A stretch of DNA of 64,000 nucleotides from sequence record PZ445551.1; one strand, given 5' to 3'. Positions 116 to 63,290 of the stretch are shown piece by piece (the stretch's first letter is position 1; every line of letters starts with the position of its first letter). The notes under the pieces are model-generated. The model was not told where the DNA came from. It worked only from the letters and a program-made list of their open reading frames with translations, and ran no database searches. A program made the position numbers and the translations under genes. This DNA is from a phage.

Positions 116-253
116 ATGAACGCATCACAGCAGATCGAAAAATTCAACCGCAGCAAGGCGCGTAAAGATTGGAACGAAGAGATCACCAAAAAAGGCGACA
201 AGCGGAACAAAACAAAGAGAGATCGCAGCACAAAAAGATACTGGAACGAATAA
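116..253 (+). CDS. small basic protein (45 aa), not in ORF track
   Basis: ATG 116 after RBS aagaggaag; Lys/Arg-rich; followed by terminator hairpin. Confidence 0.4.
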   Translation: MNASQQIEKFNRSKARKDWNEEITKKGDKRNKTKRDRSTKRYWNE

Positions 254-259
254 CAAAAA

Positions 260-280
260 GGGCGCAATAAGCGCCCTTTT
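260..280 (+). terminator. rho-independent terminator
   Basis: gggcgc-aataa-gcgccc stem-loop followed by TTTT. Confidence 0.55.
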
Positions 281-370
281 AGCTTATATAGAGGCTTGTT
301 ACCCATAGGCAATGGTAACGCCAGGATAAGCCTATAAACCACGTTAGACAGCTTTACAGGAGCTTTAAAA

Positions 371-553
371 ATGAAATTAGACGAAATAAGCAAGGCACTA
401 GCCCAGGGGCAAAGGTTATGCGCCCGATATCGTGATCAATATGGCTTCATAACTAGCGGCGTGATCCTGGGGATTGAAGGCAATAAGATTTTTATTGACA
501 CGTTGAAAAACGTTGTATATAGTGACAATATAATCTCAATAAAACATATATGA
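371..553 (+). CDS. hypothetical protein (60 aa)
   Basis: track ORF; RBS caggag upstream. Confidence 0.5.
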   Translation: MKLDEISKALAQGQRLCARYRDQYGFITSGVILGIEGNKIFIDTLKNVVYSDNIISIKHI

Positions 554-561
554 GGCAAGAA

Positions 562-963
562 ATGAAAAAATTATTGATCGCTGGTTTAATCTCTTTTGGC
601 ATGGTTGGAACATCTAGCGCGGCGATATCCTCCACAGTAGCAGAATTAAGCGCCGTTGATGCAATGGAAAACGTCATGCTTATTAATAACGCGATCCCCG
701 ATGAAATCATGGAGGATTCACACATGATCGCTTATGGTGCTGTTACACAACTAACGGCAAAAATAGATAAATCTATTGTTAACGGCTTAAATGAAGATGT
801 GCCATGTGAAATTATTACCAGTGTGCTGACTACTCAAAATTTTACGCCGTGGTTAAAAAGTATTCAAAAAGTACACAGTACAGCCGCAGATCGTAGCAAT
901 GAAAAACTAGTGTCAGCACTTGCAACGTATACCCTAGCAAAATGCACCGAGATAAAAGATTGA
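562..963 (+). CDS. secreted/periplasmic hypothetical protein with signal peptide
   Basis: track ORF trimmed to MKKLLIAGLISFGMVGTSSA (signal-peptide-like); RBS gaggcaag. Confidence 0.55.
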   Translation: MKKLLIAGLISFGMVGTSSAAISSTVAELSAVDAMENVMLINNAIPDEIMEDSHMIAYGAVTQLTAKIDKSIVNGLNEDVPCEIITSVLTTQNFTPWLKSIQKVHSTAADRSNEKLVSALATYTLAKCTEIKD

Positions 964-1010
964 CAACATAGAAAGCACGTTATAAGATACACACAACAAA
1001 GGAGAACTAC

Positions 1011-1313
1011 ATGAACGGCATAGCTAAAACGTTTTTTCTTTTTTCTGGTGTAAATGATCCATCAATAAAAGTCGATAGTGTAAAAGAAAACAATACTATC
1101 ACCGCTAAATTGTTTCAAGATGAAACAAATAACGTGCTAATCATTAATCTTAAAGAAGTAACTAAAGGTTATTATACTATTGCTTACCATGCGATTTATC
1201 ATGCTGGTACTAGTGAGGAAGTGCAAACAAGCAACAACGAAAGCGCGGCGCTACCTGGTGATCTGGTGCTGGGCGTTATCAGTTTAATTGTCAATGATTT
1301 TTTTAAGGAGTAA
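1011..1313 (+). CDS. hypothetical protein (100 aa)
   Basis: track ORF; RBS aaggag 7 nt upstream. Confidence 0.55.
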   Translation: MNGIAKTFFLFSGVNDPSIKVDSVKENNTITAKLFQDETNNVLIINLKEVTKGYYTIAYHAIYHAGTSEEVQTSNNESAALPGDLVLGVISLIVNDFFKE

Positions 1314-1317
1314 AACC

Positions 1318-1413
1318 ATGCCCTATTTACATTTATTTTTCGGTATCTTATTGACAGGATCTTTTTTCTTCTGTATGCTTGTTTCTATTGTAAACCACGT
1401 TTTAAGACATTAA
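1318..1413 (+). CDS. small hydrophobic peptide (31 aa), not in track
   Basis: ATG 1318 after RBS aaggag; single predicted TM segment. Confidence 0.3.
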   Translation: MPYLHLFFGILLTGSFFFCMLVSIVNHVLRH

Positions 1414-1422
1414 GGAAACAGC

Positions 1423-1542
1423 ATGAAAATTATTCCCGTACAATATAGCGTAATAAATCCAGCATACGAGGAAGGAAGGAAAACAAGCATGGCTTTATGT
1501 TGTATTGCTACTATAGCCATGTTGTTATATATTGTGTTTTAA
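1423..1542 (+). CDS. small membrane peptide (39 aa), not in track
   Basis: ATG 1423 after RBS aaggaaac; hydrophobic C-terminus. Confidence 0.3.
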   Translation: MKIIPVQYSVINPAYEEGRKTSMALCCIATIAMLLYIVF

Positions 1543-1571
1543 TAGGTTTTATAGTTGTACGCTTTAAGGGC

Positions 1572-1627
1572 TTGACAATTTTTTGTTATGCTTTAAACTA
1601 TATCTTGAAAACGGCAAAGGCCGCAAA
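1572..1627 (+). promoter_or_regulatory. sigma70-like promoter (TTGACA-16-TAAACT) plus 5'-UTR hairpin cggc-aaag-gccg
   Basis: TTGACA at 1572-1577, -10 at 1594-1599, hairpin 1611-1627 upstream of ATG 1643. Confidence 0.4.
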
Positions 1628-1642
1628 CAAAAGGGTAAAATT

Positions 1643-1966
1643 ATGAAATCTGTGATCGGTGTTTATTTGGATAACTCTGATTTTTTCTATCATCGCGCTC
1701 GTTTCCTTGATGCGATTGAAATGATAGAATCAGGCTTTAAAGAGTATCGCCTTGCACATGATGACCTGGAAGCATTACAGGGCAATAGTGTTTTTACATT
1801 GCAAGCTAAAGCACTATGCAAAAGCCGGATCGACATTGCGAGCAAAAAGATAGAACGCGGCATGTCCTGGTTGCGCACCGCAGAAATCAACATGGGGCAA
1901 TGGTACGGCGAAAACTTAGAAAATAAACATACTTTTGTCAATGTAGAAAATATTGAAGATTATTGA
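1643..1966 (+). CDS. hypothetical protein (107 aa)
   Basis: track ORF 1583..1966 trimmed to Met with RBS aaaagggtaaaattATG. Confidence 0.5.
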   Translation: MKSVIGVYLDNSDFFYHRARFLDAIEMIESGFKEYRLAHDDLEALQGNSVFTLQAKALCKSRIDIASKKIERGMSWLRTAEINMGQWYGENLENKHTFVNVENIEDY

Positions 1967-2028
1967 TTGACAGCACACCTAACGGGTAGTATATTGTATC
2001 TCATAGAGCGGGGAAATGGTTTCCCCGC
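1967..2028 (+). promoter_or_regulatory. promoter + conserved 5'-UTR stem-loop cassette (PeSL-like), copy 1
   Basis: TTGACA 1967-1972, 17 nt spacer, TATATT 1990-1995; hairpin GCGGGGAAA-TGG-TTTCCCCGC 2008-2028. Confidence 0.6.
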
Positions 2029-2048
2029 CTTAAAAGAAGAGATAAGCT

Positions 2049-2333
2049 ATGAAGATCACAAAAGCACTTTCCAACTATGCAGCACGTCGCGGATTATGTT
2101 TAACCGTTGAAAATTTAGGGAAAGAAGATTTTTTGTGCTTTTGGGAGCTTGAGAATGATAATGAGTGGATCTTCTCTTATTCTATCTGCGAAGATCAAAA
2201 CGGTTGTTTATTAACCTGGCGCGGTAATATCTATTTACCGGAAGAAATCAAAGAAGAATTACCAGGCACGATCATGACTGAGAAACAGCTTAAGGAAGTG
2301 ATCAATTTTGTAGGGCAAAACATTAAAAAATAA
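2049..2333 (+). CDS. hypothetical protein (94 aa)
   Basis: track ORF downstream of promoter/hairpin cassette. Confidence 0.55.
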   Translation: MKITKALSNYAARRGLCLTVENLGKEDFLCFWELENDNEWIFSYSICEDQNGCLLTWRGNIYLPEEIKEELPGTIMTEKQLKEVINFVGQNIKK

Positions 2334-2334
2334 T

Positions 2335-2392
2335 TTGACACTAGGCAAACAACGTAGTAAAGTTTATCACATAGGGCGGCAATAGTGCCGCT
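2335..2392 (+). promoter_or_regulatory. promoter + conserved 5'-UTR stem-loop cassette, copy 2
   Basis: TTGACA 2335-2340, -10 TAAAGT 2358-2363, hairpin GGGCGGCAATAGTGCCGCTC 2374-2392. Confidence 0.55.
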
Positions 2393-2414
2393 CATAACAG
2401 AAGAGAAACAAATC

Positions 2415-2585
2415 ATGATCCCGACTATGTTTTATGTATCGCGCAAAGGTCACAATATTTTTTGGTCTGAAGATTTAAATGAAGCTATGACGTTTGCCCG
2501 TGATCGTGTCGCTATCGGTGGCGTTAACATCACTGTAACCGATGAAAACGGCATTGAATACTATAACGGCGACGATGAAGAGTAA
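2415..2585 (+). CDS. hypothetical protein (56 aa)
   Basis: track ORF 2385..2585 begins at GTG inside the hairpin; trimmed to ATG 2415 with RBS gaagag. Confidence 0.45.
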   Translation: MIPTMFYVSRKGHNIFWSEDLNEAMTFARDRVAIGGVNITVTDENGIEYYNGDDEE

Positions 2586-2592
2586 TCAACAA

Positions 2593-2610
2593 GGCGGGAT
2601 TAATCCCGCC
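2593..2610 (+). terminator. GC hairpin GGCGGGA-ttaa-TCCCGCC, terminator-like
   Basis: perfect 7-bp stem after stop of 2415..2585; weak T tract; stem sequence echoes the cassette hairpins. Confidence 0.35.
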
Positions 2611-2629
2611 TGTATTAAAGGGTAATATA

Positions 2630-2767
2630 ATGAAAACTTTCAACGCAACAGCCTCGACAATTGGTTATATTATTACAGTGCAAGCCGTTGACCTGGTAGC
2701 GGCAGCAAACAAGATTAAAAAGATGATCCCAACAGGCAGCGAATTTTCCGTTTGGGAAGTAAAATAA
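2630..2767 (+). CDS. small hypothetical protein (45 aa), not in track
   Basis: ATG 2630, in-frame stop 2765-2767; lies between two cassette units. Confidence 0.3.
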   Translation: MKTFNATASTIGYIITVQAVDLVAAANKIKKMIPTGSEFSVWEVK

Positions 2768-2770
2768 ATC

Positions 2771-2828
2771 TTGACAATAGTTTATTACTTGATAGAATGT
2801 ATTTCGTAGGGCGGCAATAGTGCCGCTC
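2771..2828 (+). promoter_or_regulatory. promoter + conserved 5'-UTR stem-loop cassette, copy 3
   Basis: TTGACA 2771-2776, -10 TAGAAT 2793-2798, hairpin GGGCGGCAATAGTGCCGCTC 2809-2828 (identical to copy 2). Confidence 0.6.
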
Positions 2829-2849
2829 ACAACTAAAAGAGAAATCATC

Positions 2850-3044
2850 ATGGCGCTTAAAAAATTAACAAGCAATACTCGTTGGGATGAAATCGACGGG
2901 GAAGTATACATTTTCGCCCGTAAACCAGGTGATCAAAAATGGTCAAAGGCTTTTACTTGCCACCCTGCAACAATAGATCTAATAAAAAGTAAAGGTTTAC
3001 GTGAAGCAGTAGCGAGAAGTTTACTGATCCCTTATAAAAAATAG
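2850..3044 (+). CDS. hypothetical protein (64 aa)
   Basis: track ORF trimmed to ATG 2850 after RBS aaaagagaaatc. Confidence 0.5.
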   Translation: MALKKLTSNTRWDEIDGEVYIFARKPGDQKWSKAFTCHPATIDLIKSKGLREAVARSLLIPYKK

Positions 3045-3107
3045 TTTGACAATATGCTGTTATCTGGTAAAGTGTACGACATAGGGCGGGGCAATAAGGC
3101 AACGCCC
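3045..3107 (+). promoter_or_regulatory. promoter + degenerate stem-loop cassette, copy 4
   Basis: TTGACA 3045-3050, -10 TAAAGT 3067-3072, GGGCGGGGCAATAAGGCAACGCCC variant hairpin. Confidence 0.45.
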
Positions 3108-3125
3108 ATTAATGAGGGTAGAATC

Positions 3126-3230
3126 ATGTTAGAGAAAATTTTCACGGTTGTAGTAGTTGGCCTGGCGTTATCGGTTGGATTGGTTGCAACTATGGCTAAC
3201 ATGATCCTATCTTCCCACGGTATTGGATAA
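3126..3230 (+). CDS. small membrane peptide (34 aa), not in track
   Basis: ATG 3126 after RBS gagggtagaatc; hydrophobic core VVVVGLALSVGLVATMA. Confidence 0.35.
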   Translation: MLEKIFTVVVVGLALSVGLVATMANMILSSHGIG

Positions 3231-3240
3231 GGTGAATCAA

Positions 3241-3456
3241 ATGATCACGAATAAGACAGGTAAAACAGAATTTTTACGCGGCTTGCAAATAGGTAAACCT
3301 GAGATCTGGCATTGCACTAAATCCGCGCATAATGAAATGAAAGATTTTACCGCTACTTTACAACGTGTTAAAATATCTATCACGCAGAAAAAAGCCTTGT
3401 TAGTAGTAGAAAACGAGATACCGCAAACCATTATTATTGTCGAGCGTACAGCATGA
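3241..3456 (+). CDS. hypothetical protein (71 aa)
   Basis: track ORF 3223..3456 trimmed to ATG 3241 with RBS aaggtg. Confidence 0.5.
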   Translation: MITNKTGKTEFLRGLQIGKPEIWHCTKSAHNEMKDFTATLQRVKISITQKKALLVVENEIPQTIIIVERTA

Positions 3457-3839
3457 AAACTGAAATCATTATTGAAATCATCAACGGTTATAAAGAAGCC
3501 TTTATTTTTGCTGAATCAGCCAGGGATCATGAAGGCTATTTTATTGATAACTTAGACGATTATGATTTTTCAGATCAAGCCCATCAGCGGATCATTCATG
3601 ACGTAGCGGCTTATTGTGATGCCAATGATGCTGCTATCTCTGAGGCAATGAGCGACGGCGCTACAGCAAACCAGATCGGGAATGATTTACATTTTACCCG
3701 TAACGGTCACGGCGTAGGCTTTTGGGATCGCCCTGAAATATACACTACTAACACCGCCAACCGCCTAACAAATGCAGCTAAATTAATGCCATCGGTGCAT
3801 GCTTACATTGGTGAAGATAATTTGATTTATATTGAATAA
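3453..3839 (+). CDS. hypothetical protein (128 aa)
   Basis: track ORF; ATGA start/stop overlap with upstream gene. Confidence 0.55.
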   Translation: MKTEIIIEIINGYKEAFIFAESARDHEGYFIDNLDDYDFSDQAHQRIIHDVAAYCDANDAAISEAMSDGATANQIGNDLHFTRNGHGVGFWDRPEIYTTNTANRLTNAAKLMPSVHAYIGEDNLIYIE

Positions 3840-3845
3840 AAAGTA

Positions 3846-3904
3846 TTGACACCGATCCCCCATATGGTATTATTTACCACGTAGGCGGGAAATGGTTTCC
3901 CGCC
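3846..3904 (+). promoter_or_regulatory. promoter + conserved 5'-UTR stem-loop cassette, copy 5
   Basis: TTGACA 3846-3851, -10 TATTAT 3868-3873, hairpin GGCGGGAAA-TGG-TTTCCCGCC 3884-3904. Confidence 0.6.
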
Positions 3905-3927
3905 AGGTAATCAAAAAGGTAAATACT

Positions 3928-4317
3928 ATGCGCAACCTGGTTTCTGTTTCTAACGTTGAAAAATTTCAATCCTTGCAGGGTATCGTTAACAACGTAGCGC
4001 CTTTTTTAGTCAATGGCTTGATTGCAAAGATGAAAAATAAACATCATGCGGCATGGTCTGCTTACTGCTTTGATAATGATGAAAAAGCGGCTGAAATGAT
4101 GTTAGATATGCTGTTAAATAGTGTAGAAACATCTTTACCGGAAAACATCGCAGAAGAGATCACCTATCGTTATAATATGGCGATCACTTACCAGGAGGTT
4201 GCGCAATTTAATATGATGGATGATGACGAACAACAGGATCAGGAAATGTTTTGGGAGTATGCAGATCGTCAATCGGCTTTTGATGAAAAGTTAGCGATGT
4301 ATTATAACGAATATTAA
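3928..4317 (+). CDS. hypothetical acidic protein (129 aa)
   Basis: track ORF 3892..4317 starts inside the hairpin loop; trimmed to ATG 3928. Confidence 0.5.
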   Translation: MRNLVSVSNVEKFQSLQGIVNNVAPFLVNGLIAKMKNKHHAAWSAYCFDNDEKAAEMMLDMLLNSVETSLPENIAEEITYRYNMAITYQEVAQFNMMDDDEQQDQEMFWEYADRQSAFDEKLAMYYNEY

Positions 4318-4333
4318 TACACGGTAAAAGAAA

Positions 4334-4357
4334 GGGGCGCACTAAGCGCCCTTTTTT
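4334..4357 (+). terminator. rho-independent terminator
   Basis: ggggcgc-actaa-gcgccc hairpin followed by TTTTTT. Confidence 0.65.
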
Positions 4358-4703
4358 GTATTCTTTTTTCACGATGGAAGTAACACGTAAAGAATAAACG
4401 TAAAAGGTGGTGTAAAACAGCCTAAAACCGATTATAACCGCTTAAACAAGGTAGTAATGACTAATCACCTTGCCAGGATGAAAAAGCTGTTATAAAGCTA
4501 TTTAGAGCGTTTAAAGCACATAGGAAATAATTTGCTTTTTATCTTGCCTTTTATCCTGCTTTTGATTATTATTATGGAACGGGCGGCACCTGGGGACAGG
4601 GGAAGGTAATCACCGGAAGATCCCGCTATATATTGATAGCTAATATCTATTAAACAACAAAACATCAAAGGAATAAACTATCAAATCTTTACAATTCTAC
4701 CTA

Positions 4704-4763
4704 TTGACACAGGATCACCCTTATAATAAGATGTATCCAGTAGGGCGGGAAATGGTTTCCCGC
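4704..4763 (+). promoter_or_regulatory. promoter + conserved 5'-UTR stem-loop cassette, copy 6
   Basis: TTGACA 4704-4709, 17 nt, TAAGAT 4727-4732; hairpin GCGGGAAATGGTTTCCCGC 4745-4763. Confidence 0.6.
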
Positions 4764-4782
4764 TTGATATAGGAATCATACC

Positions 4783-5016: not shown

Positions 5017-5091
5017 CTTGCTTTATAGTCTCTGTTAATTTATAGTTATCGTGTAGGGCAAACAATTTTAAACGGTAAACGAGGAATCACC

Positions 5092-5475: not shown

Positions 5476-5490
5476 ATAACATTTCATACC

Positions 5491-5516
5491 AGGGCGCACA
5501 AAGCGCCCTTTCTTTT
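5491..5516 (+). terminator. rho-independent terminator
   Basis: agggcgc-acaa-gcgccct hairpin followed by T-rich run. Confidence 0.6.
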
Positions 5517-5722
5517 TACCTAAATAAAGATGATAGCTTTTACCTATCAAAAACGTTCACCGAAAAAAGTGAATAGATCGCGGTATCGAGCTAATCAAGG
5601 AGCAGATGAACAACCATACCATGAAGATCATAAGGCGCTTACAACGTGTTTTAGACCGCTTATTTTTAATTTCTCAATGTAACTATCTGGCAAAAACAGC
5701 CTTTTTCTTGTCTTTCCTCTTA

Positions 5723-5740
5723 AATGATAATCATTCTTAT
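5723..5740. promoter_or_regulatory. Fur-box-like site AATGATAATCATTCTTAT
   Basis: near match to the enterobacterial Fur box GATAATGATAATCATTATC. Confidence 0.35.
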
Positions 5741-5780
5741 TTATAGCTGATTATTTATGCAATAAACTGAATAATGCAAT

Positions 5781-5797
5781 AATGATAATCATTCTTA
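5781..5797. promoter_or_regulatory. Fur-box-like site AATGATAATCATTCTTA
   Basis: second copy, preceded by ATAATGCAAT. Confidence 0.35.
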
Positions 5798-6090
5798 ACT
5801 TATGACCATCTAACCTATAAAATAATAAGTTATCTAACTAAATTAAAACTAATTATCTCACCTTTATTTATAACTTACTGTTACTATCTCATTGATAACC
5901 TTATATTAAACAACAATAACCAATATAAATCATTACTAAGCTAAATATAATCTATCTAACCTTTAAAACTATAACTATAATCTATCGAATTGTTGCACAA
6001 AGTAACTATTAAATTGTTAGTAACATTACTAAATAATTAATATCCTATCTATTTATGATCTAATCTTTATCTTCCTATCTATTACCTAAA

Positions 6091-6121
6091 TAATCATTTC
6101 ATACAGTAATCATTTCATACA
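6091..6121. repeat. tandem direct repeat AATCATTTCATACA x2
   Basis: two adjacent near-identical 15-16 bp units. Confidence 0.5.
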
Positions 6122-6157
6122 ATAATTATAACAAGAAATATAATTCGCAAGCGTATC

Positions 6158-6192
6158 ATTAGCAGCCTATGCCGGACACATAGGCGGCTAAT
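6158..6192. repeat. 14-bp inverted repeat ATTAGCAGCCTATG / CATAGGCGGCTAAT around 7-nt spacer
   Basis: one mismatch; GC-rich island in AT-rich context. Confidence 0.5.
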
Positions 6193-6663
6193 AATAACGC
6201 AACTACACACCCCACATAATAACCATCACCGATAGTTATTATTTGTGCTTATGTAGCTTGCAACAATTGCAAGCGCAACAATATACATGGTATATTGTAT
6301 CCCTTACATTGTTGCGGTGCGTTATTATTAGCTAATGTTTAGAACATTGGCTATAATATAAGCTAAGTAATAAGCTATGCAATAATAAACATGGTGAATA
6401 ATGACATTGATGATCATAATGCGCCACCTTCCAGGGGGCGCTATGTGAACACAAAGAAATCTTTCTTGTCAAGAAAAAATATTGCCATTATTGCGCAAAA
6501 TTATTTATATCTGAATAGATGATTTTTCATACTATTGCCCCATATAACATACCTCATTTGTTGAGCATAGTTATAGCCTATTTGTTGAGCCTACTTTCTT
6601 AAAAGCGCAATAAATCAGAATTATCTTGATTTTTAGTCTGTTTTATAGTATAGAAAGTATGCA

Positions 6664-6679
6664 AATGATAATCATTATC
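6664..6679. promoter_or_regulatory. Fur-box-like site AATGATAATCATTATC
   Basis: 16/16 identity to the 3' 16 nt of the Fur-box consensus. Confidence 0.4.
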
Positions 6680-6849
6680 AGCTATCTTCCACGGGTAGCA
6701 CTATTTCACGCCAGATCATTTCATTTGGCAAGGTGTATATAGATGTTTAGACTTGCCAAGCCATTGATTTACTTAGAATTTATCTGTTTTGTTGTGAGTA
6801 GAGCCTTTCTTGCTCAGAAAATAATCAAAAGTCTTATAAGTCATTGAAT

Positions 6850-6874
6850 GATAATGCAAATGATAATTATTCTC
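6850..6874. promoter_or_regulatory. Fur-box-like site GATAATGCAAATGATAATTATTCTC
   Basis: repeat of the ATAATGCAA-ATGATAAT unit seen at 5771-5797. Confidence 0.35.
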
Positions 6875-7236
6875 ATTGATATTTGAGGGGGACGGTCGGC
6901 AGAAATCGGGGGGCGCTGAAAATCGCGTTAAGCACCTCTCGCAAGCGAGCAGTATTTTGCGGCAAGTTATTGATATTATTGGCTTTACGCTTATGAAAAG
7001 GGGGTGTGTCGAAATAAATCGGGTATACCGGAAAATTTTTGTGGCATAGATATTTATTTGTCTATATTATGTACAAAAGGGTGTGTTAAAAATATTAGGT
7101 ATATATAGAATAATTGATAGGGAAATCCTATACTAATTCCTCCATTAATGATGTTTCTATGTTACTGTTCTTGTAACAGATGAAAAGACGCTGTATGATG
7201 TGTGGCATGAAACGTAAATTTATAAAGGAGTCTGAT

Positions 7237-7596: not shown

Positions 7597-7597
7597 A

Positions 7598-7753
7598 ATG
7601 TTGGAATTGATTGGGATAGTTTGGTTAATGATAAAAGCAGGTTTCGTCGGTTTCGGACTTCTTATAATTTTGTGTATGTTCCTTAGTGCAATACAGGCAT
7701 TCTTTTATCTGCTAGGTAGAATACTTAAGTTGGGAGGTGATAATGAAAAGTAA
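7598..7753 (+). CDS. small membrane protein (51 aa)
   Basis: track ORF 7571..7753 trimmed to ATG 7598; two hydrophobic segments. Confidence 0.4.
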   Translation: MLELIGIVWLMIKAGFVGFGLLIILCMFLSAIQAFFYLLGRILKLGGDNEK

Positions 7754-8640: not shown

Positions 8641-8641
8641 C

Positions 8642-8857: not shown

Positions 8858-8871
8858 AAGAGGAAAAGAAG

Positions 8872-9048
8872 ATGGATAAACAAACTACTATGTACTTAGT
8901 AACAAAGAATACCCCAGGCTGGAGCCAATGCAGCACTGTTCCTTATAAGATCTGTGCAACATTAGAACTAGCACAACGTGCAGAAGCAGAAGTGAATGCC
9001 ATGCAATACAGCTATGGTGAAATCATTCCTTTTACTCTTGAACAATAA
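8872..9048 (+). CDS. small hypothetical protein (58 aa), not in track
   Basis: ATG 8872 after RBS aagaggaaaag; fills gap between track ORFs. Confidence 0.4.
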   Translation: MDKQTTMYLVTKNTPGWSQCSTVPYKICATLELAQRAEAEVNAMQYSYGEIIPFTLEQ

Positions 9049-10908: not shown

Positions 10909-11133
10909 ATGGTAAAACGTCTGGAATGGGATGCGTGTACTGCTCACGCTTGTCACTGTAATATTGTGGAAGATCCTAATGGAGAAATGGTGTATTATGA
11001 GGATTACGAAGCATTGCATAATGCTGTGATCGCTTTACTGGATGATATTAGCTCACGCTATCCAGGACAACAGTTTACGTGTCCACATATCCAACTATTA
11101 GCCAAACTTACGGAGTATCCAAGTGTTTCATAA
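10909..11133 (+). CDS. hypothetical protein (74 aa)
   Basis: track ORF; RBS taggaggg. Confidence 0.55.
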   Translation: MVKRLEWDACTAHACHCNIVEDPNGEMVYYEDYEALHNAVIALLDDISSRYPGQQFTCPHIQLLAKLTEYPSVS

Positions 11134-11134
11134 T

Positions 11135-11302
11135 ATGGGTGTCCCTGAACAACTCCTCTTTATTGTAGGATTAGTGGGCTTATTAGCGGCTGGAGCCAAA
11201 GCCGCTTCTCACACGCATCACATAATGTTAAGATTTCTGTTCCTACTCCCTTCTATCCTTGTATTATTAGTCATATTGATTGATAACATTTTTCACAATT
11301 AA
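11135..11302 (+). CDS. small membrane protein (55 aa), not in track
   Basis: ATG 11135; hydrophobic segments; weak RBS. Confidence 0.3.
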   Translation: MGVPEQLLFIVGLVGLLAAGAKAASHTHHIMLRFLFLLPSILVLLVILIDNIFHN

Positions 11303-12997: not shown

Positions 12998-13208
12998 AAC
13001 GCACTTTATACATCCGTTTGATCCAAAGAACAAGGCGGTTATACACCGCCGTTGGACTGAAACGCGCATTACAAAATGTCCTGTGCCAGCAGCACAGGAA
13101 TATAACAAAACATATAAAGCAGAATTTGTGGAGTACACCTTTGTAAATAACAAAGGGAAGGAGGTTTATGTTCCAGAATACTGCCTTTGGATAAAATGGG
13201 AGGAATAA
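12990..13208 (+). CDS. hypothetical protein (72 aa)
   Basis: track ORF. Confidence 0.5.
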   Translation: MSKTHFIHPFDPKNKAVIHRRWTETRITKCPVPAAQEYNKTYKAEFVEYTFVNNKGKEVYVPEYCLWIKWEE

Positions 13209-13375
13209 TGCAAACATTTTTTATCGACAAGTTCAATAAAAGTATGAACACGTGGATGGCAACATTCACTATGCAATTTGCGTCATTTAAAGAAGCTCAA
13301 GAATGGTGCGATCAACACAAGGATTTTGATTTTTACTATCAAGTTAATGCAAACCTTTCTCCAGAGGAGAAATAA
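13208..13375 (+). CDS. hypothetical protein (55 aa)
   Basis: track ORF 13187..13375 trimmed to ATG 13208 after RBS gggagg. Confidence 0.45.
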   Translation: MQTFFIDKFNKSMNTWMATFTMQFASFKEAQEWCDQHKDFDFYYQVNANLSPEEK

Positions 13376-14921: not shown

Positions 14922-15169
14922 ATATCAAAGATGTTGTAGCATACGTAGAAGATGAAGTTAAAAACCATACAAGTTTACTGAAAGTAATGGTTGTGGTTAA
15001 AGATGGTATTGGACAAGTAAACGTACAACATGTCTTATCTGACACTGTATATAATGTGTTTGAATGTAAAGAAACACCTCATGGAGTACGTGTGGTTTAT
15101 ATTGATAACAATTTCAAAGAATGTGTGAGACATACCTTAGAAAATGAACTAAGGATCACAATCTTATGA
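14918..15169 (+). CDS. hypothetical protein (83 aa)
   Basis: track ORF. Confidence 0.5.
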   Translation: MNIKDVVAYVEDEVKNHTSLLKVMVVVKDGIGQVNVQHVLSDTVYNVFECKETPHGVRVVYIDNNFKECVRHTLENELRITIL

Positions 15170-15339
15170 GTTATTATGTTGTACCTTATGCCAATAAGTG
15201 GAGAGTAAGAGAAACTTGTTTTCTATTCTCTTGGTGGGCTACGTTCGGAGATGGTTGTGGAAATGATACAGGAAAGCCTGTAGAGTACGACACAAAAGAA
15301 GAATGTGAACAGTGGATAAAATTAACACAAAGATGTTGA
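15166..15339 (+). CDS. small Cys/Trp-rich protein (57 aa), not in track
   Basis: ATG 15166 overlapping upstream stop (ATGA); in-frame TGA 15337-15339. Confidence 0.4.
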   Translation: MSYYVVPYANKWRVRETCFLFSWWATFGDGCGNDTGKPVEYDTKEECEQWIKLTQRC

Positions 15340-15919: not shown

Positions 15920-16059
15920 CCATGTATAACATGGAATATTCTCTACCTCGCTATCGCTCGGTATATAAGATTAGGGTAGCATGTTTTTTACGAAAAGTAA
16001 AACTGTTTATACCGATTGATAGCAGGTTTTTAATAGATTCTATCTATGAGGAGTAGAAA

Positions 16060-16278
16060 GTGTACAAATTATATAAAGGAAAAGATAAGTTTACGGGTAA
16101 TACATCTGGTTTCTATGTAACACCACGTGGCGTTGCCGTATTTGATTGGATTCCTGGTACTCCAGATCGTGAAATGATCTCTCTTGTAAAACTGTCGGAA
16201 CAAGAGTACACTTACGGTGACATTACAACATTCTATTCTCGTGCAGAAAATCCAAAACTGATTGCGGAGTGGGAATAA
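16060..16278 (+). CDS. hypothetical protein (72 aa), GTG start
   Basis: track ORF; RBS gaggag 6 nt upstream of GTG 16060. Confidence 0.45.
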   Translation: MYKLYKGKDKFTGNTSGFYVTPRGVAVFDWIPGTPDREMISLVKLSEQEYTYGDITTFYSRAENPKLIAEWE

Positions 16279-16541
16279 TGGTTACACGATATGATTTAGA
16301 GGTGTACAGCCAAGGTGCTGCTGGTCAATGTGATATTGTACCAGATCCAGAAGGAGACTATGTTCTTCTTGCTGATTACAACAAGCTAGAAGAAAGACTT
16401 CTGGCTGTGTATGCTAAAGAGAACAAAACAATCTGTCCTTATTGCAATGGAATGGGTTGGGTGGTTGCAGATGTTGGACAAATGTATGAGTGTGTACCTT
16501 GTAAAACCACAGGCTTTATTGAAAAGGATACTGACAAATGA
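16269..16541 (+). CDS. hypothetical protein with CxxC...CxxC zinc-ribbon motif (90 aa)
   Basis: track ORF; CPYCNG ... CVPCKTTG. Confidence 0.5.
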   Translation: MGIMVTRYDLEVYSQGAAGQCDIVPDPEGDYVLLADYNKLEERLLAVYAKENKTICPYCNGMGWVVADVGQMYECVPCKTTGFIEKDTDK

Positions 16542-18579: not shown

Positions 18580-18684
18580 ATGATGACGTTTATTGTTGGT
18601 GTTGTTGTTGGTTATTTTGGTCACAAGTACCAGGATGTTATCATCGCTAAAGTTGACGAAGTAATCGAAAAATTTAAACACTAA
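18580..18684 (+). CDS. small membrane peptide (34 aa), not in track
   Basis: ATG 18580 after RBS aaggagaag. Confidence 0.3.
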   Translation: MMTFIVGVVVGYFGHKYQDVIIAKVDEVIEKFKH

Positions 18685-18735: not shown

Positions 18736-18909
18736 ATGTTCAAAGATACCAATTATAAATGTGTACATTGTGGTAAATCTTTTGGTGATCACAAAGCTAA
18801 AACATTCAATTGTCCACGAAAAGGGCGAGGTAGCTTTAAAGGTTTTAATCCATCCCACGTTTATTCTCCCAACTACGAGAAACCAGAAGAAGAAAAATTT
18901 GTAATCTGA
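18736..18909 (+). CDS. small zinc-ribbon-like protein (57 aa), not in track
   Basis: ATG 18736 after strong RBS aaaggagag; CVHCGK...CPRKG; preferred over track ORF 18707..18904 in another frame. Confidence 0.45.
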   Translation: MFKDTNYKCVHCGKSFGDHKAKTFNCPRKGRGSFKGFNPSHVYSPNYEKPEEEKFVI

Positions 18910-21722: not shown

Positions 21723-22331
21723 TTATACCAGACTTTTAAGGTACTTGTCAAGGGCTTCTTGATCACCTTGACAAACATAGCAACGGAAGTCTTGAGCAGA
21801 AGGTTCTTTGTCCTCGTCCCAATCCCAATAGACAGTACCTTTATAACGTGAGCCTGGGAACTCGAAATATGCTGTATGAGTAATATGATGTGGGCCACCC
21901 CAAAACTGTGTAAAAGTAAATTGAGGATACGCTGCTTTAACTGTATTTTCAAACCAAGTTTTACGATCTAATGCTTCGTTTATAAAATAAGCATGGCGTT
22001 CCATTTCATCCCAGTTTTTCCAAACGCATTTTTCATCCAGAGAAAAAACAAAATCTTCACTGTTGAATTCATCTGTATCTTCCAAAATATCATAATCATG
22101 TGCACTAGGTATCCACCATCCAGCTTCTAATAGTGCTTTCACGGGTACAAAACCTTTTTCAGCATATTGATCAAATTCTTTTACTCTACGTACAGTGCAG
22201 TATTCATCTTCACCACCAATGTCCAGTAGAAAAGCACCTTTGCGTCTTGCTGCAAGACCATGTGTATCAAAAACTACAACACTACCTTCACCATCTTCAC
22301 GATCTACTTGATATGCAACTTTTTGAGTCAT
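21723..22331 (-). CDS. hypothetical protein (202 aa)
   Basis: track ORF 21723..22487 trimmed to ATG 22331 so it no longer overlaps the methyltransferase gene. Confidence 0.45.
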   Translation of the reverse strand: MTQKVAYQVDREDGEGSVVVFDTHGLAARRKGAFLLDIGGEDEYCTVRRVKEFDQYAEKGFVPVKALLEAGWWIPSAHDYDILEDTDEFNSEDFVFSLDEKCVWKNWDEMERHAYFINEALDRKTWFENTVKAAYPQFTFTQFWGGPHHITHTAYFEFPGSRYKGTVYWDWDEDKEPSAQDFRCYVCQGDQEALDKYLKSLV

Positions 22332-22455
22332 ATTACCCCCCAATGTACATGGGAAATTAACCAAAAGATAAATTCCCAAAAACACCAACCAAGAAAAGTT
22401 AATGGAATTATAAAAGCTATCAGAGCAGTCTTCCAGCCTTTCCACAATGTTTCCA

Positions 22456-23445
22456 CTATTCCTCCATACATTTAAGAATATGTGCAATGACAGGTATAGT
22501 CCAACCGTTACCTAACATCTTATATGCTTGTGTGTTACTACTCACTTTAAAGTAATCATCTGGAACACCTTGTAAGCGGCAACACTCTTTAACCGTTAAC
22601 TTTCTATAATGTACGCCTTCACTCAATTTTTCAAAGGCATCTAGATATCTTCCAGGTGGAATGTAGGCTAATAGTACGTCTTTAGGCACAGTCGTGAGGC
22701 AACGAGTTTTTTCACTGTCCTGAACTTCCAAACAATGTACCAAACGATCAGTTTTAGATGTACTACGTTTGCCATTTTCATTAATTCTACGCCCATATAT
22801 TGCTGCCGGATAAAAAACCAGTTGTCTGCGACTCTTTTCAAAATACTGTTCTATATTACCACCTTTGGCATAATTTGCATCTATGCAATAAGCCTTATCT
22901 CTGTCTACAATACTATCATCTTCAATTATATCTTGCAACACTTCATTGGTAATCTCCCAGGGTTTTATTTCCCAGTTGCACCAGTATAAACGTTGTCTAT
23001 TCTGTGCCGTGAAATCTGCGGAGTTAATGAATACGGGATCAACACCTAAGTAACTTGTGATCACGTTTTCCCACTCCATTTTCATCTTAACGTTTTCAAG
23101 CATGAACTTAACATTAGGATTAAACTTTTTAATATGTTCAAGAATTTCAACATATTCGAAGAATAGCTTAGATCGTGGATCTTGAAAGTTCAAACCCTTA
23201 CCAGAAGAAGAGAAGCCTTGACACGGACTACCACCTAACAAAAGATCAATTTCTCCCCACGGGATATCCCATTCTCTCCATTTTGTAACATCACCTAACT
23301 GAATAATATCTGGAAAATTTGCTTGGCTTTCAGCTACGGCAAATTTGTCTAATTCTGAAGCGTAATATGTATCTACTTCAATACCTGCACTTTTTAGCGC
23401 AAGCATTCCTCCTGACATACCATCAAAAAGACTTAAAACTTTCAT
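22456..23445 (-). CDS. dcm: DNA (cytosine-5)-methyltransferase
   Basis: motif I LFDGMSGG, motif IV GGSPCQGFS, motif VI ENV; 329 aa. Confidence 0.85.
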   Translation of the reverse strand: MKVLSLFDGMSGGMLALKSAGIEVDTYYASELDKFAVAESQANFPDIIQLGDVTKWREWDIPWGEIDLLLGGSPCQGFSSSGKGLNFQDPRSKLFFEYVEILEHIKKFNPNVKFMLENVKMKMEWENVITSYLGVDPVFINSADFTAQNRQRLYWCNWEIKPWEITNEVLQDIIEDDSIVDRDKAYCIDANYAKGGNIEQYFEKSRRQLVFYPAAIYGRRINENGKRSTSKTDRLVHCLEVQDSEKTRCLTTVPKDVLLAYIPPGRYLDAFEKLSEGVHYRKLTVKECCRLQGVPDDYFKVSSNTQAYKMLGNGWTIPVIAHILKCMEE

Positions 23446-36312: not shown

Positions 36313-36442
36313 TATCTTCCTCTTCTTCTTCAGTATGAACGAAACCTAAACCGTTACAATTCCAACAAGGAATAAATTGTTCCATACTAACAATAAAATT
36401 CCCAGTACCACCGCAGATAGGACAAATACTTACATCATCCAT
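36302..36442 (-). CDS. small zinc-ribbon protein (46 aa), not in track
   Basis: ATG 36442 after RBS gaggag; CPICGG ... CWNCNG. Confidence 0.35.
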   Translation of the reverse strand: MDDVSICPICGGTGNFIVSMEQFIPCWNCNGLGFVHTEEEEEDNGD

Positions 36443-49339: not shown

Positions 49340-49546
49340 TTATTTAAAATATTGTTCTAACAAAACACTAATGCGAACTACAGATTCGCCCATATACGCC
49401 CCAGCACAGAGGAAAACAACAAATCTACAAAAATTGCAGTACCATTTGTCCACTGGAAACGACGCTAACATTATAATTGCAATAGCAATTAACATCATAA
49501 GAACTGTTACTAATACCATATTACCTCTTACTCTGCTGGTTCCCAA
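49340..49546 (-). CDS. small membrane protein (68 aa)
   Basis: track ORF; hydrophobic. Confidence 0.45.
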   Translation of the reverse strand: MGTSRVRGNMVLVTVLMMLIAIAIIMLASFPVDKWYCNFCRFVVFLCAGAYMGESVVRISVLLEQYFK

Positions 49547-53275: not shown

Positions 53276-53634
53276 TAGTATAATCCCTCGCTGAATAGTT
53301 CACTGTTGTGACCATTTCTTTCGTAGTTAATTTGTTTGGCGTTATCTGCAATGATATAAGCATCTTTGCGACTCCACCAGTTATAATACTGATCAATAAA
53401 CCCTTGATTATCAGGTAAGCAAAACAGTTTATCAATCAATCCTGCATCTTTTAAAACATTAAGTTGTGCAGATAGTACAGGATTTGCATGCCTAACACAA
53501 GGAATAATTAACTCTTCGCCATTATTGAGAATATACTTATTCGCAGCGCAGACTATAACACGTTGAGCATAGTGATCCTCACCAAGCCAAGTAAGAGGTT
53601 GGTAACAAATATCATGTTGATTAGTAGCGCACAT
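53275..53634 (-). CDS. hypothetical protein (119 aa)
   Basis: track ORF (TTG 53637) trimmed to ATG 53634. Confidence 0.5.
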   Translation of the reverse strand: MCATNQHDICYQPLTWLGEDHYAQRVIVCAANKYILNNGEELIIPCVRHANPVLSAQLNVLKDAGLIDKLFCLPDNQGFIDQYYNWWSRKDAYIIADNAKQINYERNGHNSELFSEGLY

Positions 53635-53792
53635 CAATTTTCCCCATACTCTTTTAATCTATCAGCGAAAAAACTGTAATCAGGAAGTAAAAGATCATTA
53701 CTCGTATCGCTACAGTTTTCTTCCTCTTTATAGATAAAATGCCCTTCATCCTCTTCTTGCTCTGACCAAACTGAGTAATGCATAATACCTAC

Positions 53793-59175: not shown

Positions 59176-59286
59176 ATGTCTACAGAAATTATTTTTGGCT
59201 TATCTGTTTTTATTGCTCTTGTATCTTTTGTATGCGGTTATACACTAGGTTACAGATCAAGAAAAAATATTGTAAAAACTAGTTGA
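59176..59286 (+). CDS. small membrane peptide (36 aa), not in track
   Basis: ATG 59176 after RBS aaggaaacag; one TM segment. Confidence 0.35.
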   Translation: MSTEIIFGLSVFIALVSFVCGYTLGYRSRKNIVKTS

Positions 59287-59946: not shown

Positions 59947-60009
59947 AAAAGTTTTAAAAACTACTTGACAAGCAAGATAGTTTTATGTTAGATTTAAAGT
60001 ATAATAACT

Positions 60010-60099: not shown

Positions 60100-60117
60100 A
60101 ATTCTCTTAGGAGCTTT

Positions 60118-60270
60118 ATGAATTATAAAACTATTGGACAGGTTGTTACCGGAGTTAAGATTGTAAATAATAAAGTTGTTTATGAGTATTCTAATCTTCA
60201 ACAATCTGAAGATGGTAAGAATATTCGTATGGTAAAAACAGAACAAAAAGATTCCGGTTGTTTTGAATAA
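60118..60270 (+). CDS. small hypothetical protein (50 aa) embedded in tRNA array
   Basis: track ORF 60070..60270 trimmed to ATG 60118 after RBS aggag so it no longer overlaps tRNA-Ser. Confidence 0.45.
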   Translation: MNYKTIGQVVTGVKIVNNKVVYEYSNLQQSEDGKNIRMVKTEQKDSGCFE

Positions 60271-61803: not shown

Positions 61804-61888
61804 GGCTAAGTGGTGGAATGGTATACACGATACGCTTAGAACGTATTGCCCCAAGGGATTGTGAGTTCGAGTCTCACCTTAGCTACCA
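61804..61888 (+). tRNA. tRNA-Leu(TAG), type II
   Basis: acceptor GGCTAAG/CTTAGCT, anticodon arm ATACG-CTTAGAA-CGTAT, long variable arm, T-arm GTGAG-TTCGAGT-CTCAC. Confidence 0.8.
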
Positions 61889-61903
61889 AATTATTACAGA
61901 TTG

Positions 61904-61982
61904 TGCGGGATAGAGGAGTCTGGTCGTCCTCGCCAGTTTCATATGCTGGAGATCATCGGTTCGAATCCGATTCCCGCCTCCA
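61904..61982 (+). tRNA. tRNA-Met(CAT) (second CAT tRNA; elongator Met, initiator or Ile2)
   Basis: anticodon arm CCAGT-TTCATAT-GCTGG, T-arm ATCGG-TTCGAAT-CCGAT, acceptor with mismatched 1-72 pair. Confidence 0.7.
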
Positions 61983-62040
61983 ATAAATACCTCCCTTCTG
62001 GTGTAATGATTAAGTTACATTGACACTTCAAGGAACTCAT

Positions 62041-62123
62041 AGCCGGGTAGATTTAAAAGAGTATGGTACTCAATATGGCTCCAAACCATAGATCAAGGGG
62101 TTCGATTCCTCACCTTGCTGCCA
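62041..62123 (+). tRNA. atypical tRNA-Trp(CCA)-like element (possible pseudo-tRNA)
   Basis: anticodon arm TATGG-CTCCAAA-CCATA and T-loop TTCGATT present, but 11-nt insert between acceptor 5' strand and D-arm and imperfect acceptor/T stems. Confidence 0.3.
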
Positions 62124-62128
62124 ATTAT

Positions 62129-62204
62129 TGTGGTATCGTACAGATGGTTAGTACACTCGACCGATAATCGAGAAACAACGGTTCGACTCCGTTTACCACG
62201 ACCA
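62129..62204 (+). tRNA. tRNA-Ile(GAT)
   Basis: acceptor TGTGGTA/TACCACG, D-arm GTAC-AGATGGTTA-GTAC, anticodon arm CTCGA-CCGATAA-TCGAG, T-arm AACGG-TTCGACT-CCGTT. Confidence 0.8.
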
Positions 62205-62312
62205 AACTCCGTGCCAGCGGTGTCTTCGAAGAACAAGCCTAGTTCCTTCTGAGATGGAGGGGTGCGACTCCTTAACGCACATACTACTACTAAATACTTA
62301 TCAGGAGATATT

Positions 62313-62582
62313 ATGTATACTTTAAAAGTAATTCGCAAGTTTCCTCAAGAAGAGGAAGTAAGAATTTATAACACTGTCCCATTCGTAGTAAATGAAGAAG
62401 AATTCTTTTATTGCTTAGAAGATGAAGTGATTATTCAATATCATTGGGAAGGTTATGACAGACCAGATGGTGTTGTAGCTTCTGTGATTGCTGGTGAAAG
62501 AGTGTTATTCATTCACAAAACTGAATCAGCATATTTAATGAATGATAAAGGACAAACTGTTAAAGTAATTAACAGACCATAA
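62313..62582 (+). CDS. hypothetical protein (89 aa)
   Basis: track ORF 62262..62582 trimmed to ATG 62313 after RBS caggag. Confidence 0.5.
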   Translation: MYTLKVIRKFPQEEEVRIYNTVPFVVNEEEFFYCLEDEVIIQYHWEGYDRPDGVVASVIAGERVLFIHKTESAYLMNDKGQTVKVINRP

Positions 62583-62595
62583 AGAATTTTATAAA

Positions 62596-62619
62596 AGCCT
62601 CCTTTTTGGAGGTTTTTTA
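62596..62619 (+). terminator. rho-independent terminator
   Basis: agcctcc-ttttt-ggaggtt followed by TTTTTT. Confidence 0.65.
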
Positions 62620-62688
62620 TTATCTATAAAATAAAGATCTTTACAAAACGTATAAAATATGTTATCCTTAAGTAAGGAGGTGCATATT

Positions 62689-62979
62689 ATGCCTAAATTG
62701 AAAAGAGGTCGAGGTAGACCTACAGCCGAAATGCAACAGATTTATGCTATGGATGCTGCACAGGCGCAAGTAAAAGAAATTTTTGCTGGTCGTTATTTAG
62801 ATGCTATGCGTTACATTGCAGATCTTGTTGTAGATGAAAAGGCTTCTGCTAATATTAAGTTGACTGCTTCTAAGATCATCAAAGAACAAGTAGAAGAATG
62901 GCTGGAAGAACATTATGAATCTATGGAAGAAGAAGATATTCTTCCAGAAAATTCTCCCCCTCAAAAAATCGTTATCTAA
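62689..62979 (+). CDS. small protein with N-terminal AT-hook (KRGRGRP) and acidic C-terminus
   Basis: track ORF 62659..62979 trimmed to ATG 62689 after RBS aaggagg. Confidence 0.5.
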   Translation: MPKLKRGRGRPTAEMQQIYAMDAAQAQVKEIFAGRYLDAMRYIADLVVDEKASANIKLTASKIIKEQVEEWLEEHYESMEEEDILPENSPPQKIVI

Positions 62980-63026
62980 TTCTCCTCTCTTGGGAACTTT
63001 GTTCCCCCTCTCCTTGTTAATTAACA

Positions 63027-63056
63027 CCCCTTTCCGAAAGGTTAGGGGGTTTTTTA
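63027..63056 (+). terminator. rho-independent terminator
   Basis: cccc...ggggg hairpin followed by TTTTTT. Confidence 0.5.
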
Positions 63057-63116
63057 TTTATACCTATTGCTTTTATATATGTTTTTATGATATGATTAAT
63101 ACAGGAGGATTATAAA

Positions 63117-63290
63117 ATGAGAAACTATGTAGCTAAACACGATTTCAATAGGGCTTCTTATCACAGAGATAAGAAGAACAGTTATTCGCGTAAATGGGAT
63201 CTGGAGGAAGAGTTAGACTATGATTACAGAAGAACAATGGAAGGAGATTTTGGAGAATGCACAACCGATGGTAGTGAAGAAGATAGTTAA
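63117..63290 (+). CDS. small hypothetical protein (57 aa), not in track
   Basis: ATG 63117 after strong RBS caggagga. Confidence 0.45.
   Translation: MRNYVAKHDFNRASYHRDKKNSYSRKWDLEEELDYDYRRTMEGDFGECTTDGSEEDS

Follow-up and report, generated by a model that had tools for sequence, protein, structure and literature searches.

Sixteen small frames in a phi92-like coliphage genome: probably ordinary genes, most of them already annotated

Do the gaps between the longer open reading frames (ORFs) of a phage genome hold further genes and, if so, have those genes been overlooked? The question arises for a 64,000-nucleotide (nt) stretch of phage DNA (sequence record PZ445551.1; hereafter the window), in which an earlier note, made from the letters alone, pointed to 16 small frames preceded by an AGGAG-type ribosome-binding site (RBS) and proposed that a standard annotation would likely miss them. 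We followed up these frames, each named here by the position of its start codon, by comparing them with related genomes. With a probability of roughly 85%, and with one open case (1318) set aside, the frames appear to be ordinary small protein-coding genes of a phi92-like Justusliebigvirus. They are known and annotated as hypothetical small phage proteins, and they are not overlooked.

Positions 1–20000 and 30000–54000 of the window are 100% identical to the reverse strand of Escherichia phage VivaForever, PP925843.1 (hereafter the deposit), with window position equal to 94105 minus record position. The source phage is a phi92-like Justusliebigvirus, a virulent E. coli myovirus. Its nearest genomes are phi92 and about 55 other Justusliebigvirus at 95–99% identity, followed by Phapecoctavirus genomes at about 80% identity where these can be aligned at all. 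GC skew and annotation divide the window into a rightward gene block from 1 to 19.9 kb, a leftward block from 20 to 55.8 kb and a second rightward block from 56 kb, which holds the tRNA array and the spanin genes. As a scan of IMG/VR with a neighbouring protein of 150 amino acids (aa) returned just two related contigs, relatives were picked singly from the GenBank phage collection.

All 16 ATG-started, uninterrupted frames of 31–58 codons are present as described. Under a strict Shine-Dalgarno (SD) rule (AGGA, GGAG or GAGG, 5–16 nt before the start), the claimed RBS was found for 13 of them and not for 2630 (only AAGGG), 53783 (AGTAGG) or 11135 (no SD). To control for chance, we generated 200 dinucleotide shuffles of the 99 gaps (about 10 kb) that lie outside long coding sequences (CDS) and tRNA genes. 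The real gaps contain 15 distinct ORFs of 31–58 aa with an ATG and an SD on the local coding strand and none antisense, compared to 0.72 ± 0.85 (maximum 4) in the shuffled gaps. The set of small frames is far above chance.

We then asked whether the frames are under purifying selection. Each frame with 30-nt flanks was aligned to at most 13 Justusliebigvirus loci, and in the candidate frame and both shifted frames alike, each distinct substitution was scored as either synonymous (S) or non-synonymous (N). Pooled within the genus over 15 candidates, the candidate frames show S = 74 and N = 35 (omega 0.12, p = 1e-26); because the counts are column-wise, ignore phylogeny and draw on 1 to 13 close relatives of one genus, this and all p-values below are approximate and indicative only, which tempers the case for coding. 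The two shifted frames per candidate show no synonymous excess in the pooled test. Individually, p falls below 0.05 for 116, 1423, 2630, 3126, 8872, 11135, 15166, 18580 (from S = 2, N = 0 only), 36442 and 63117. Between genera, we compared synonymous (pS) and non-synonymous (pN) divergence from Phapecoctavirus B15 and, for some frames, also ESCO13. For 116, 1423, 18580, 18736, 32249, 36442, 53783 and 63117, pS is 0.6–0.8 (saturated) and pN 0.09–0.41.

From these sequence comparisons, 13 frames are well supported as coding: 116, 1423, 2630, 3126, 8872, 11135, 15166, 18580, 18736, 32249, 36442, 53783 and 63117. The description of all 16 as strongly supported ORFs stands for these; 59176 and 60118 are probable genes, and 1318 is open. 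The frames are listed below with their matches to PHROGs v4 families, the corresponding CDS of the deposit and individual substitution counts.

116..253, plus strand: 45 aa, very basic (pI 10.3), a member of the T7 gene 1.1 family; phi92 gp237 homologue; phrog_2490; deposit CDS0184; S = 8, N = 4, omega 0.11, p = 2e-4, a signal confined to the candidate frame
1318..1413, plus strand: 31-aa hydrophobic frame; deposit CDS0180; S = 2, N = 4, omega 0.54, p = 0.37
1423..1542, plus strand: 39 aa, with a polar N-terminal half and a predicted C-terminal transmembrane (TM) segment; omitted by the deposit; S = 7, N = 7, omega 0.26, p = 0.013
2630..2767, plus strand: 45-aa soluble protein in a variable early cassette; phrog_29854, 3.5e-35; deposit CDS0175; S = 10, N = 6, p = 9e-4 (against EmilieFrey alone)
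3126..3230, plus strand: 34-aa single-pass membrane peptide; start at 3054 in the deposit; S = 6, N = 4, p = 0.027
8872..9048, plus strand: 58-aa acidic soluble protein; phi92 gp002 homologue; phrog_24303, 4e-44; deposit CDS0152; S = 10, N = 10, omega 0.26, p = 0.003
11123..11302, plus strand: two-TM membrane protein, 55 aa from the ATG at 11135, where deposit CDS0144 starts; phi92 gp009 homologue; S = 17, N = 2, omega 0.04, p = 4e-9
15166..15339, plus strand: 57-aa protein with four Cys; phi92 gp021 homologue; phrog_15964; deposit CDS0132; S = 8, N = 0, p = 2e-6
18580..18684, plus strand: 34-aa peptide with a hydrophobic N-terminus; phi92 gp032 homologue; phrog_11666; deposit CDS0120
18736..18909, plus strand: 57-aa basic protein, predicted zinc knuckle (C9, C12, H19, C26); phi92 gp033 homologue; phrog_10623; deposit CDS0119
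32106..32249, minus strand: 47-aa protein with a basic N-terminus and an acidic C-terminus; phi92 gp062 homologue; phrog_14981, 1.4e-35; deposit CDS0091
36302..36442, minus strand: 46-aa acidic protein with two CxxCxGxG motifs; phi92 gp070 homologue; phrog_8027; deposit CDS0083; S = 6, N = 2, p = 7e-4
53634..53783, minus strand: 49-aa very acidic protein; phi92 gp099 homologue; phrog_18323, 9e-34; deposit CDS0054
59176..59286, plus strand: 36 aa, with a TM segment at the N-terminus followed by a basic tail; phi92 gp109 homologue; weak match to phrog_19198, 8e-5; deposit CDS0043
60118..60270, plus strand: 50-aa soluble protein between two tRNA-Ser genes; phi92 gp111 homologue; phrog_22441; deposit CDS0041; p = 0.088
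63117..63290, plus strand: 57-aa protein with a basic N-terminus and an acidic C-terminus, just upstream of the spanin genes; phi92 gp116 homologue; phrog_15229, 3e-38; deposit CDS0034; S = 4, N = 1, p = 0.004

PHROGs matches were obtained for 14 of the 16 frames (E from 8e-5 to 4e-44) and for neither 1318 nor 11135. At the curated gathering cut-offs of Pfam, 14 of the 16 frames have no match, and sequence searches of the PDB returned weak zinc-finger or rubredoxin-like similarities at most, with none for 116.

The earlier note had suggested conservation in related phages as a check, and the frames are mostly intact there. Reading frames are uninterrupted in 13/13 relatives for 116, 1318 and 1423, 12/12 for 3126, 10/10 for 11135, 9/9 for 18580 and 8/8 for 15166, the last of which is deleted in A145 and A150. 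The 15166 start, ATGA, overlaps the stop of the upstream gene. An in-frame 6-nt insertion in 8872 is found in KKE7M and EC_OE_11. Across the genus boundary, identity to the B15 protein is 91% for 8872, 85% for 32249 (80% at the nt level; pS 0.61 vs pN 0.09), 81% for 18736 (0.63 vs 0.11), 78% for 53783 (0.76 vs 0.12), 68% for 116 and 63% for 63117 (0.62 vs 0.21); 18580 is 61% identical to its counterparts in B15 and ESCO13 (0.69 vs 0.22). The B15 homologue of 53783 has a strong SD (AAGGAG), and a CDS is annotated at the position corresponding to 53783 in KKE7M and EC_OE_11. The 32249 homologue is annotated in phi92 and ESCO13, and 18580 in all annotated relatives examined.

Whether these genes had been overlooked can be read from the existing records. 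The deposit annotates 14 of the 16 frames exactly and gives a fifteenth, 3126, a longer CDS starting at 3054; 1423 is absent and is the only frame new relative to PP925843.1. Twelve have orthologues in the curated phi92 record (GenBank/RefSeq, NC_023693), defined by at least 90% identity and the same neighbours; these are the phi92 homologues named above, and they have the same positions, the same lengths and 92–100% protein identity. In the part of that record examined, RBS features are given for nine. The phi92 orthologues are likewise without assigned function, and only gp033 ("predicted zinc finger-containing protein") and gp070 ("putative DnaJ chaperone") carry predicted labels. phi92 differs in having the DNA of 1318, 1423 and 3126 with no CDS annotated and in lacking 2630. 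We looked up ten exact sequences, among them 1423, and every one already exists in public protein collections; for 1423, the entries come from metagenome assemblies alone. The view that routine annotation missed the genes and that the list adds new ones to this genome is therefore unlikely to be right for PP925843.1.

The same expectation has more in its favour for a subset of frames in the relatives, namely 116, 1318, 1423, 3126 and 11135. In the early block, muut and KKE7M annotate 15166, 18580 and 18736 (KKE7M also 8872) and omit all five of these; ESCO32 and inny omit 116, 1318, 1423 and 3126. EC_OE_11 lacks annotations for 11135 and 1318, and 1318 is also without one in phi92. The locus tags of KKE7M look like those of Prokka, and the phi92 record itself comments on "weak prodigal statistics" for gp237 and "bad prodigal statistics" for gp009. 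Among 56 Justusliebigvirus records, about 45 of them annotated, the interval between the gp240 and gp241 homologues contains two small CDS in about 14 and none in about 31. Among the matches listed, 16 of the 26 annotated records place no CDS over the 3126 peptide, and 1423 is not annotated as such in any GenBank relative; where a CDS lies beneath the 1423 match, it is the overlapping frame of the 1497 type discussed below (checked in EmilieFrey and pEC-M2929-1AR.1). In some records, about five candidates go unannotated out of the twelve to fifteen present.

Several observations weigh against counting every frame as a gene. Our literature search found no transcript, Ribo-seq or peptide study for phi92-like or rV5-like phages. 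Frameshifts interrupt 8872 in muut and one IMG/VR contig, and 59176 in PHB05. Both 59176 and 60118 show too little variation for testing (S = 2, N = 1 and S = 4, N = 5, respectively). The SD of 60118 differs in phi92, and exactly 135 nt (60111..60245) are cleanly deleted in KKE7M and EC_OE_11, removing the SD and most of the frame. For 1318, the SD (AAGGAG) sits within the final codons of the upstream gene, the six substitutions among the 13 relatives show no frame preference, a promoter-like TTGACA-N17-TATGCT lies inside the frame (1351..1379), and we found neither a PHROGs or Pfam match nor a counterpart in B15.

One could conclude that certain frames, chiefly 1318 and perhaps also 59176 and 60118, are chance frames over promoter, leader or tRNA-processing spacers, conserved only through very low divergence within the genus. 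The location of 60118 between tRNA genes and downstream of a promoter-like site (59965..59994) would fit. As a general account this is distinctly improbable, given that shuffled gaps yield fewer than one such ORF per window and the antisense strand none. Moreover, 60118 matches a 50-position PHROGs family at 3.5e-39, with omega 0.32 and an intact frame in 6/6 carriers, and in 7/8 relatives the start, SD and length of 59176 are preserved. Even for 1318, the aa changes are largely conservative (T/S, M/I, R/K and one P2H), and we put its being a coding gene at about even odds.

We consider 59176 a probable gene and 60118 a probable, dispensable one. Homologues of 59176 were found in 56 Justusliebigvirus records only, some without a full-length match, and those of 60118 in 51 records, all Justusliebigvirus and nearly always annotated. 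A distant blastn search with the tRNA-region segment was flooded by tRNA matches in unrelated phages and showed just that the two frames are limited to Justusliebigvirus. KKE7M and EC_OE_11 also contain an inserted segment of about 370 nt close to window position 60500, labelled as a putative homing endonuclease in EC_OE_11; from these comparisons, the tRNA array appears to be an indel hot spot.

It is highly improbable that the frames are remnants of once longer genes, as the frameshifts in 8872 and 59176 and the best PHROGs profile of 36442 (153 positions, matched at 2–48 only) might suggest, since the short frames themselves are under purifying selection, Phapecoctavirus homologues with an end-to-end match or an annotated CDS are of equal length or within about 4 codons (1423, 3126, 8872, 18580, 18736, 32249, 36442 and 63117), and Pfam or PHROGs profiles are matched end to end by 116, 2630, 3126, 8872, 18736, 32249, 53783, 60118 and 63117.

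With most of the frames read as genes, three gene models of the deposit call for revision. In place of 1423..1542, the deposit annotates 1497..1646, a different, overlapping frame. We rejected the latter model: it is frameshifted in 2/13 relatives, starts with GTG in 2/13, has no PHROGs match and shows omega 0.47 (p = 0.15). The 1423..1542 frame is better supported because it is intact in all 13, matches phrog_10979 ("membrane protein", 1.2e-8, profile positions 6–39 of 39), has a B15 counterpart and is preceded at 44 nt by a promoter-like site (TTGACA-N17-TATGCT). The B15 counterpart is a 39-aa ORF of the same place and architecture (1103..1222 of the B15 segment; 42% identity, E 3e-5), and tblastn gave more distant matches in two Salmonella phages (SPHG1, SPLA11) and two Escherichia phages (PiR, swi3). 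Members of phrog_10979 share the length and the C-terminal TM segment of 1423; outside Justusliebigvirus, identity is about 42–50%, and the members are without known function.

For the gene ending at 3230, the conserved start appears to be 3126 and not 3054. The 3054 start was rejected, as it is lost or frameshifted in 7/10 relatives and its ATG lies between the hexamers of a promoter-like site. phrog_14631 has 34 positions, which align to residues 25–58 of the version started at 3054. Two features precede the 3126 start:

3046..3073, plus strand: promoter-like site, TTGACA-N16-TAAAGT, 53 nt upstream of 3126
3084..3107, plus strand: leader hairpin, GGGCG..CGCCC, -16.8 kcal/mol, z -3.9

The promoter type, the leader hairpin, the SD and the 3126 peptide are all kept in the Vequintavirus EmilHeitz and in WPEC6. 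By tblastn, matches to the peptide at 88–100% identity come from 151 phage records, spread over Justusliebigvirus, Phapecoctavirus and Vequintavirus. We set aside the interpretation of this deep conservation as extreme constraint. The whole block 2594..3454, which includes 2630 and 3126, is 88–91% identical at the DNA level to EmilHeitz, a phage from another subfamily, and 86–96% to WPEC6, and since it is similar throughout, modular exchange accounts for much of the 3126 identity. On this evidence, the block is best described as a mosaic module common to rV5-like and phi92-like coliphages. Homologues of 2630 with 1–2 aa differences lie upstream of the 3126 homologue in both EmilHeitz and WPEC6; the two are adjacent in EmilHeitz, and VivaForever has an extra gene (2850..3044) between them. 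Elsewhere, 2630 has a homologue in EmilieFrey and is absent from phi92, A145 and B15.

The third model concerns 11135. In-frame with this ATG is a GTG at 11123 with a GGAG 7 nt upstream, giving 59 aa in place of 55, and the phi92 annotation likewise places the gp009 start 12 nt, or 4 codons, ahead of the ATG aligned with 11135. GTG 11123 is probably the likelier start of the gene ending at 11302. A T-to-C change at 11128 in relatives is synonymous when read in the GTG-extended frame and alters an aa of the upstream gene, whose end overlaps here.

Promoter-like sites such as those before 1423 and 3126 are frequent in the window: TTGACA-N16-18-TANNNT occurs 30 times vs 4.4 ± 2.1 in shuffles. Ten TTGACA-type sites lie on the plus strand within the first 5 kb (495..4732), nearly all of them 20–55 nt before a start codon. 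The arrangement resembles a series of strong early promoters of the sigma-70 type, with about one for each gene.

What might the products be? The expectation of single-TM peptides was borne out by one hydrophobic segment each in 1318, 1423, 3126 and 59176, with two segments in 11135. So was that of CxxC proteins, by the two CxxCxGxG motifs of 36442 and by 18736, which has one CxxC and a conserved His and Cys.

Frame 116 aligns through residues 5–44 to positions 2–40 of 40, the whole profile, of Pfam PF08200 (Phage_1_1), scoring 46.1 bits against a cut-off of 21 (E 6.5e-12), and thus falls within this family. It resembles T7 gene 1.1 in its length of about 45 aa, its very basic composition and the terminator-like hairpin directly after it, but it resides in a 146-kb myovirus and not a T7-like podovirus. 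No function is known for the T7 gene 1.1 family (PMC7064336), and our literature search returned none. The hairpin, directly after the stop at 256..280, is GC-rich with flanking A and T runs (AAAAGGGCGC..GCGCCCTTTT), and looks like a bidirectional intrinsic terminator closing the 116 transcription unit. A similar terminator-like hairpin is also found at 4329..4357.

The motifs of 36442 are CPICGGTG (residues 7–14) and CWNCNGLG (residues 26–33). The closest known counterparts are the DnaJ zinc centre and Bacillus anti-TRAP; two CxxCxGxG in 46 residues would suffice for one four-Cys zinc site. DnaJ itself has four repeats (two zinc centres) and flanking J and C-terminal domains; 36442 has two repeats and scores 19.6 bits against PF00684 (DnaJ_CXXCXGXG), below the cut-off of 32.7. 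Its other sub-threshold matches are to Anti-TRAP (PF15777) and zinc-ribbon families. We infer that 36442 probably binds one zinc ion and is DnaJ-zinc-domain-like without being a member of that family. Its aa identity is 49% in B15 and ESCO13. The phage has a second CxxC-rich, DnaJ-like zinc-finger mini-protein at 16278..16541, the homologue of phi92 gp025 ("predicted DnaJ-like zinc finger domain"), which gives a weak tblastn match to 36442 (27.5% identity).

The first half of 18736 (YKCVHCGKSF) fits a C2H2 finger, with the His pair replaced by H19 ... C26. It scores 14 bits against PF00096, where the cut-off is 25.2, and all four candidate ligands (C9, C12, H19 and C26) are kept across genera. 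For 63117, membership in DUF7230 (PF23876) is marginal: 29.4 bits against a cut-off of 27, with residues 2–26 on positions 4–29 of 42 only. Profile and sequence searches returned no informative homologues for the membrane and charged peptides.

Taken together, these data suggest the following picture, in which translation and every functional role are inferred from sequence. Ten frames belong to the rightward early-gene block after the genome terminus, where several genes at the block start (about 1–5 kb) appear to have their own sigma-70-type promoter; two lie inside leftward nucleotide-metabolism and replication operons and four around the tRNA array and beside the lysis genes. Translation would begin at SD-led or translationally coupled start codons. 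The predicted products are of four kinds: small membrane-inserted peptides (1423, 3126, 11135, 59176 and perhaps 1318 and 18580); single-zinc-site mini-proteins (36442 and 18736); one T7 gp1.1-type basic protein (116) together with one DUF7230 protein (63117); and short soluble peptides that are charged or otherwise uncharacterised (2630, 8872, 15166, 32249, 53783 and 60118). By analogy with the small early proteins of other virulent phages, and judging by their size, composition, early-promoter position and variability between relatives, such products would most likely act early in infection by binding host or phage proteins and membranes and modulating them, and not as enzymes.

The early regions of T4 and T5 contain dense genes of 30–100 codons, often with their own strong sigma-70 promoter, that vary between close relatives and in many cases encode membrane-directed or highly charged products. 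The excess of promoter-like patterns described above and the presence or absence of 2630, 15166 and 60118 among relatives both recall such "host-takeover" ORFs. We found no homology to named T4 or T5 early proteins; the likeness is organisational only. It is possible, though doubtful, that the 3126 unit encodes a specific early effector, such as a peptide for superinfection exclusion or one that inhibits a host protein of the inner membrane, and that co-infecting E. coli myoviruses exchange this unit as a module. The 1423 peptide could be a second such effector.

The frames matter mainly for annotation quality, being for the most part real and not new. PP925843.1 would gain 1423..1542 and drop, or mark as doubtful, 1497..1646; the start at 3054 would move to 3126, and that at 11135 probably to GTG 11123. 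The records also illustrate how uneven the annotation of small genes is over about 56 near-identical phi92-like genomes, some of which add doubtful tiny CDS in a non-coding terminal repeat. For target searches, the follow-up leaves a few conserved mini-proteins of a phage group used in therapy collections: the five membrane peptides, both zinc knuckles and the T7 gp1.1 homologue. Nothing here alters known phage biology.

The terminal repeat can be placed in the window. The 343-bp direct terminal repeat of phi92 maps to 6588..6930 (98% identity) and the right end of phi92 to 5476..6930, which identifies the ORF-poor region 5476..7150 as the physical genome terminus. The tiny CDS that the deposit places in this region are probably spurious: 5606..5746, 6115..6210 (minus strand), 6243..6335, 6391..6522, 6626..6742, 6743..6847, 6883..6996 and 7004..7108.

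Three of the relatives used above are deposited as "Campylobacter phage A145, A150, B15" (MG065650, MG065645 and MG065639), in records that are UNVERIFIED and unannotated. Over the candidate frames compared, A145 and A150 are 95–100% identical to E. coli Justusliebigvirus and B15 to Phapecoctavirus genomes, and the Campylobacter host label looks doubtful.

Finally, the deposit annotates further similar small CDS of at most 60 aa that lie outside the 16 frames: 7598..7753, 13208..13375, 15922..16056, 22328..22456 (minus strand), 49340..49519 (minus strand) and 62990..63115. Of these, 13208..13375 (55 aa, SD present) matches phi92 gp014 by position and length, and the two minus-strand frames have phi92 gp042 and gp090, respectively, as counterparts by position.

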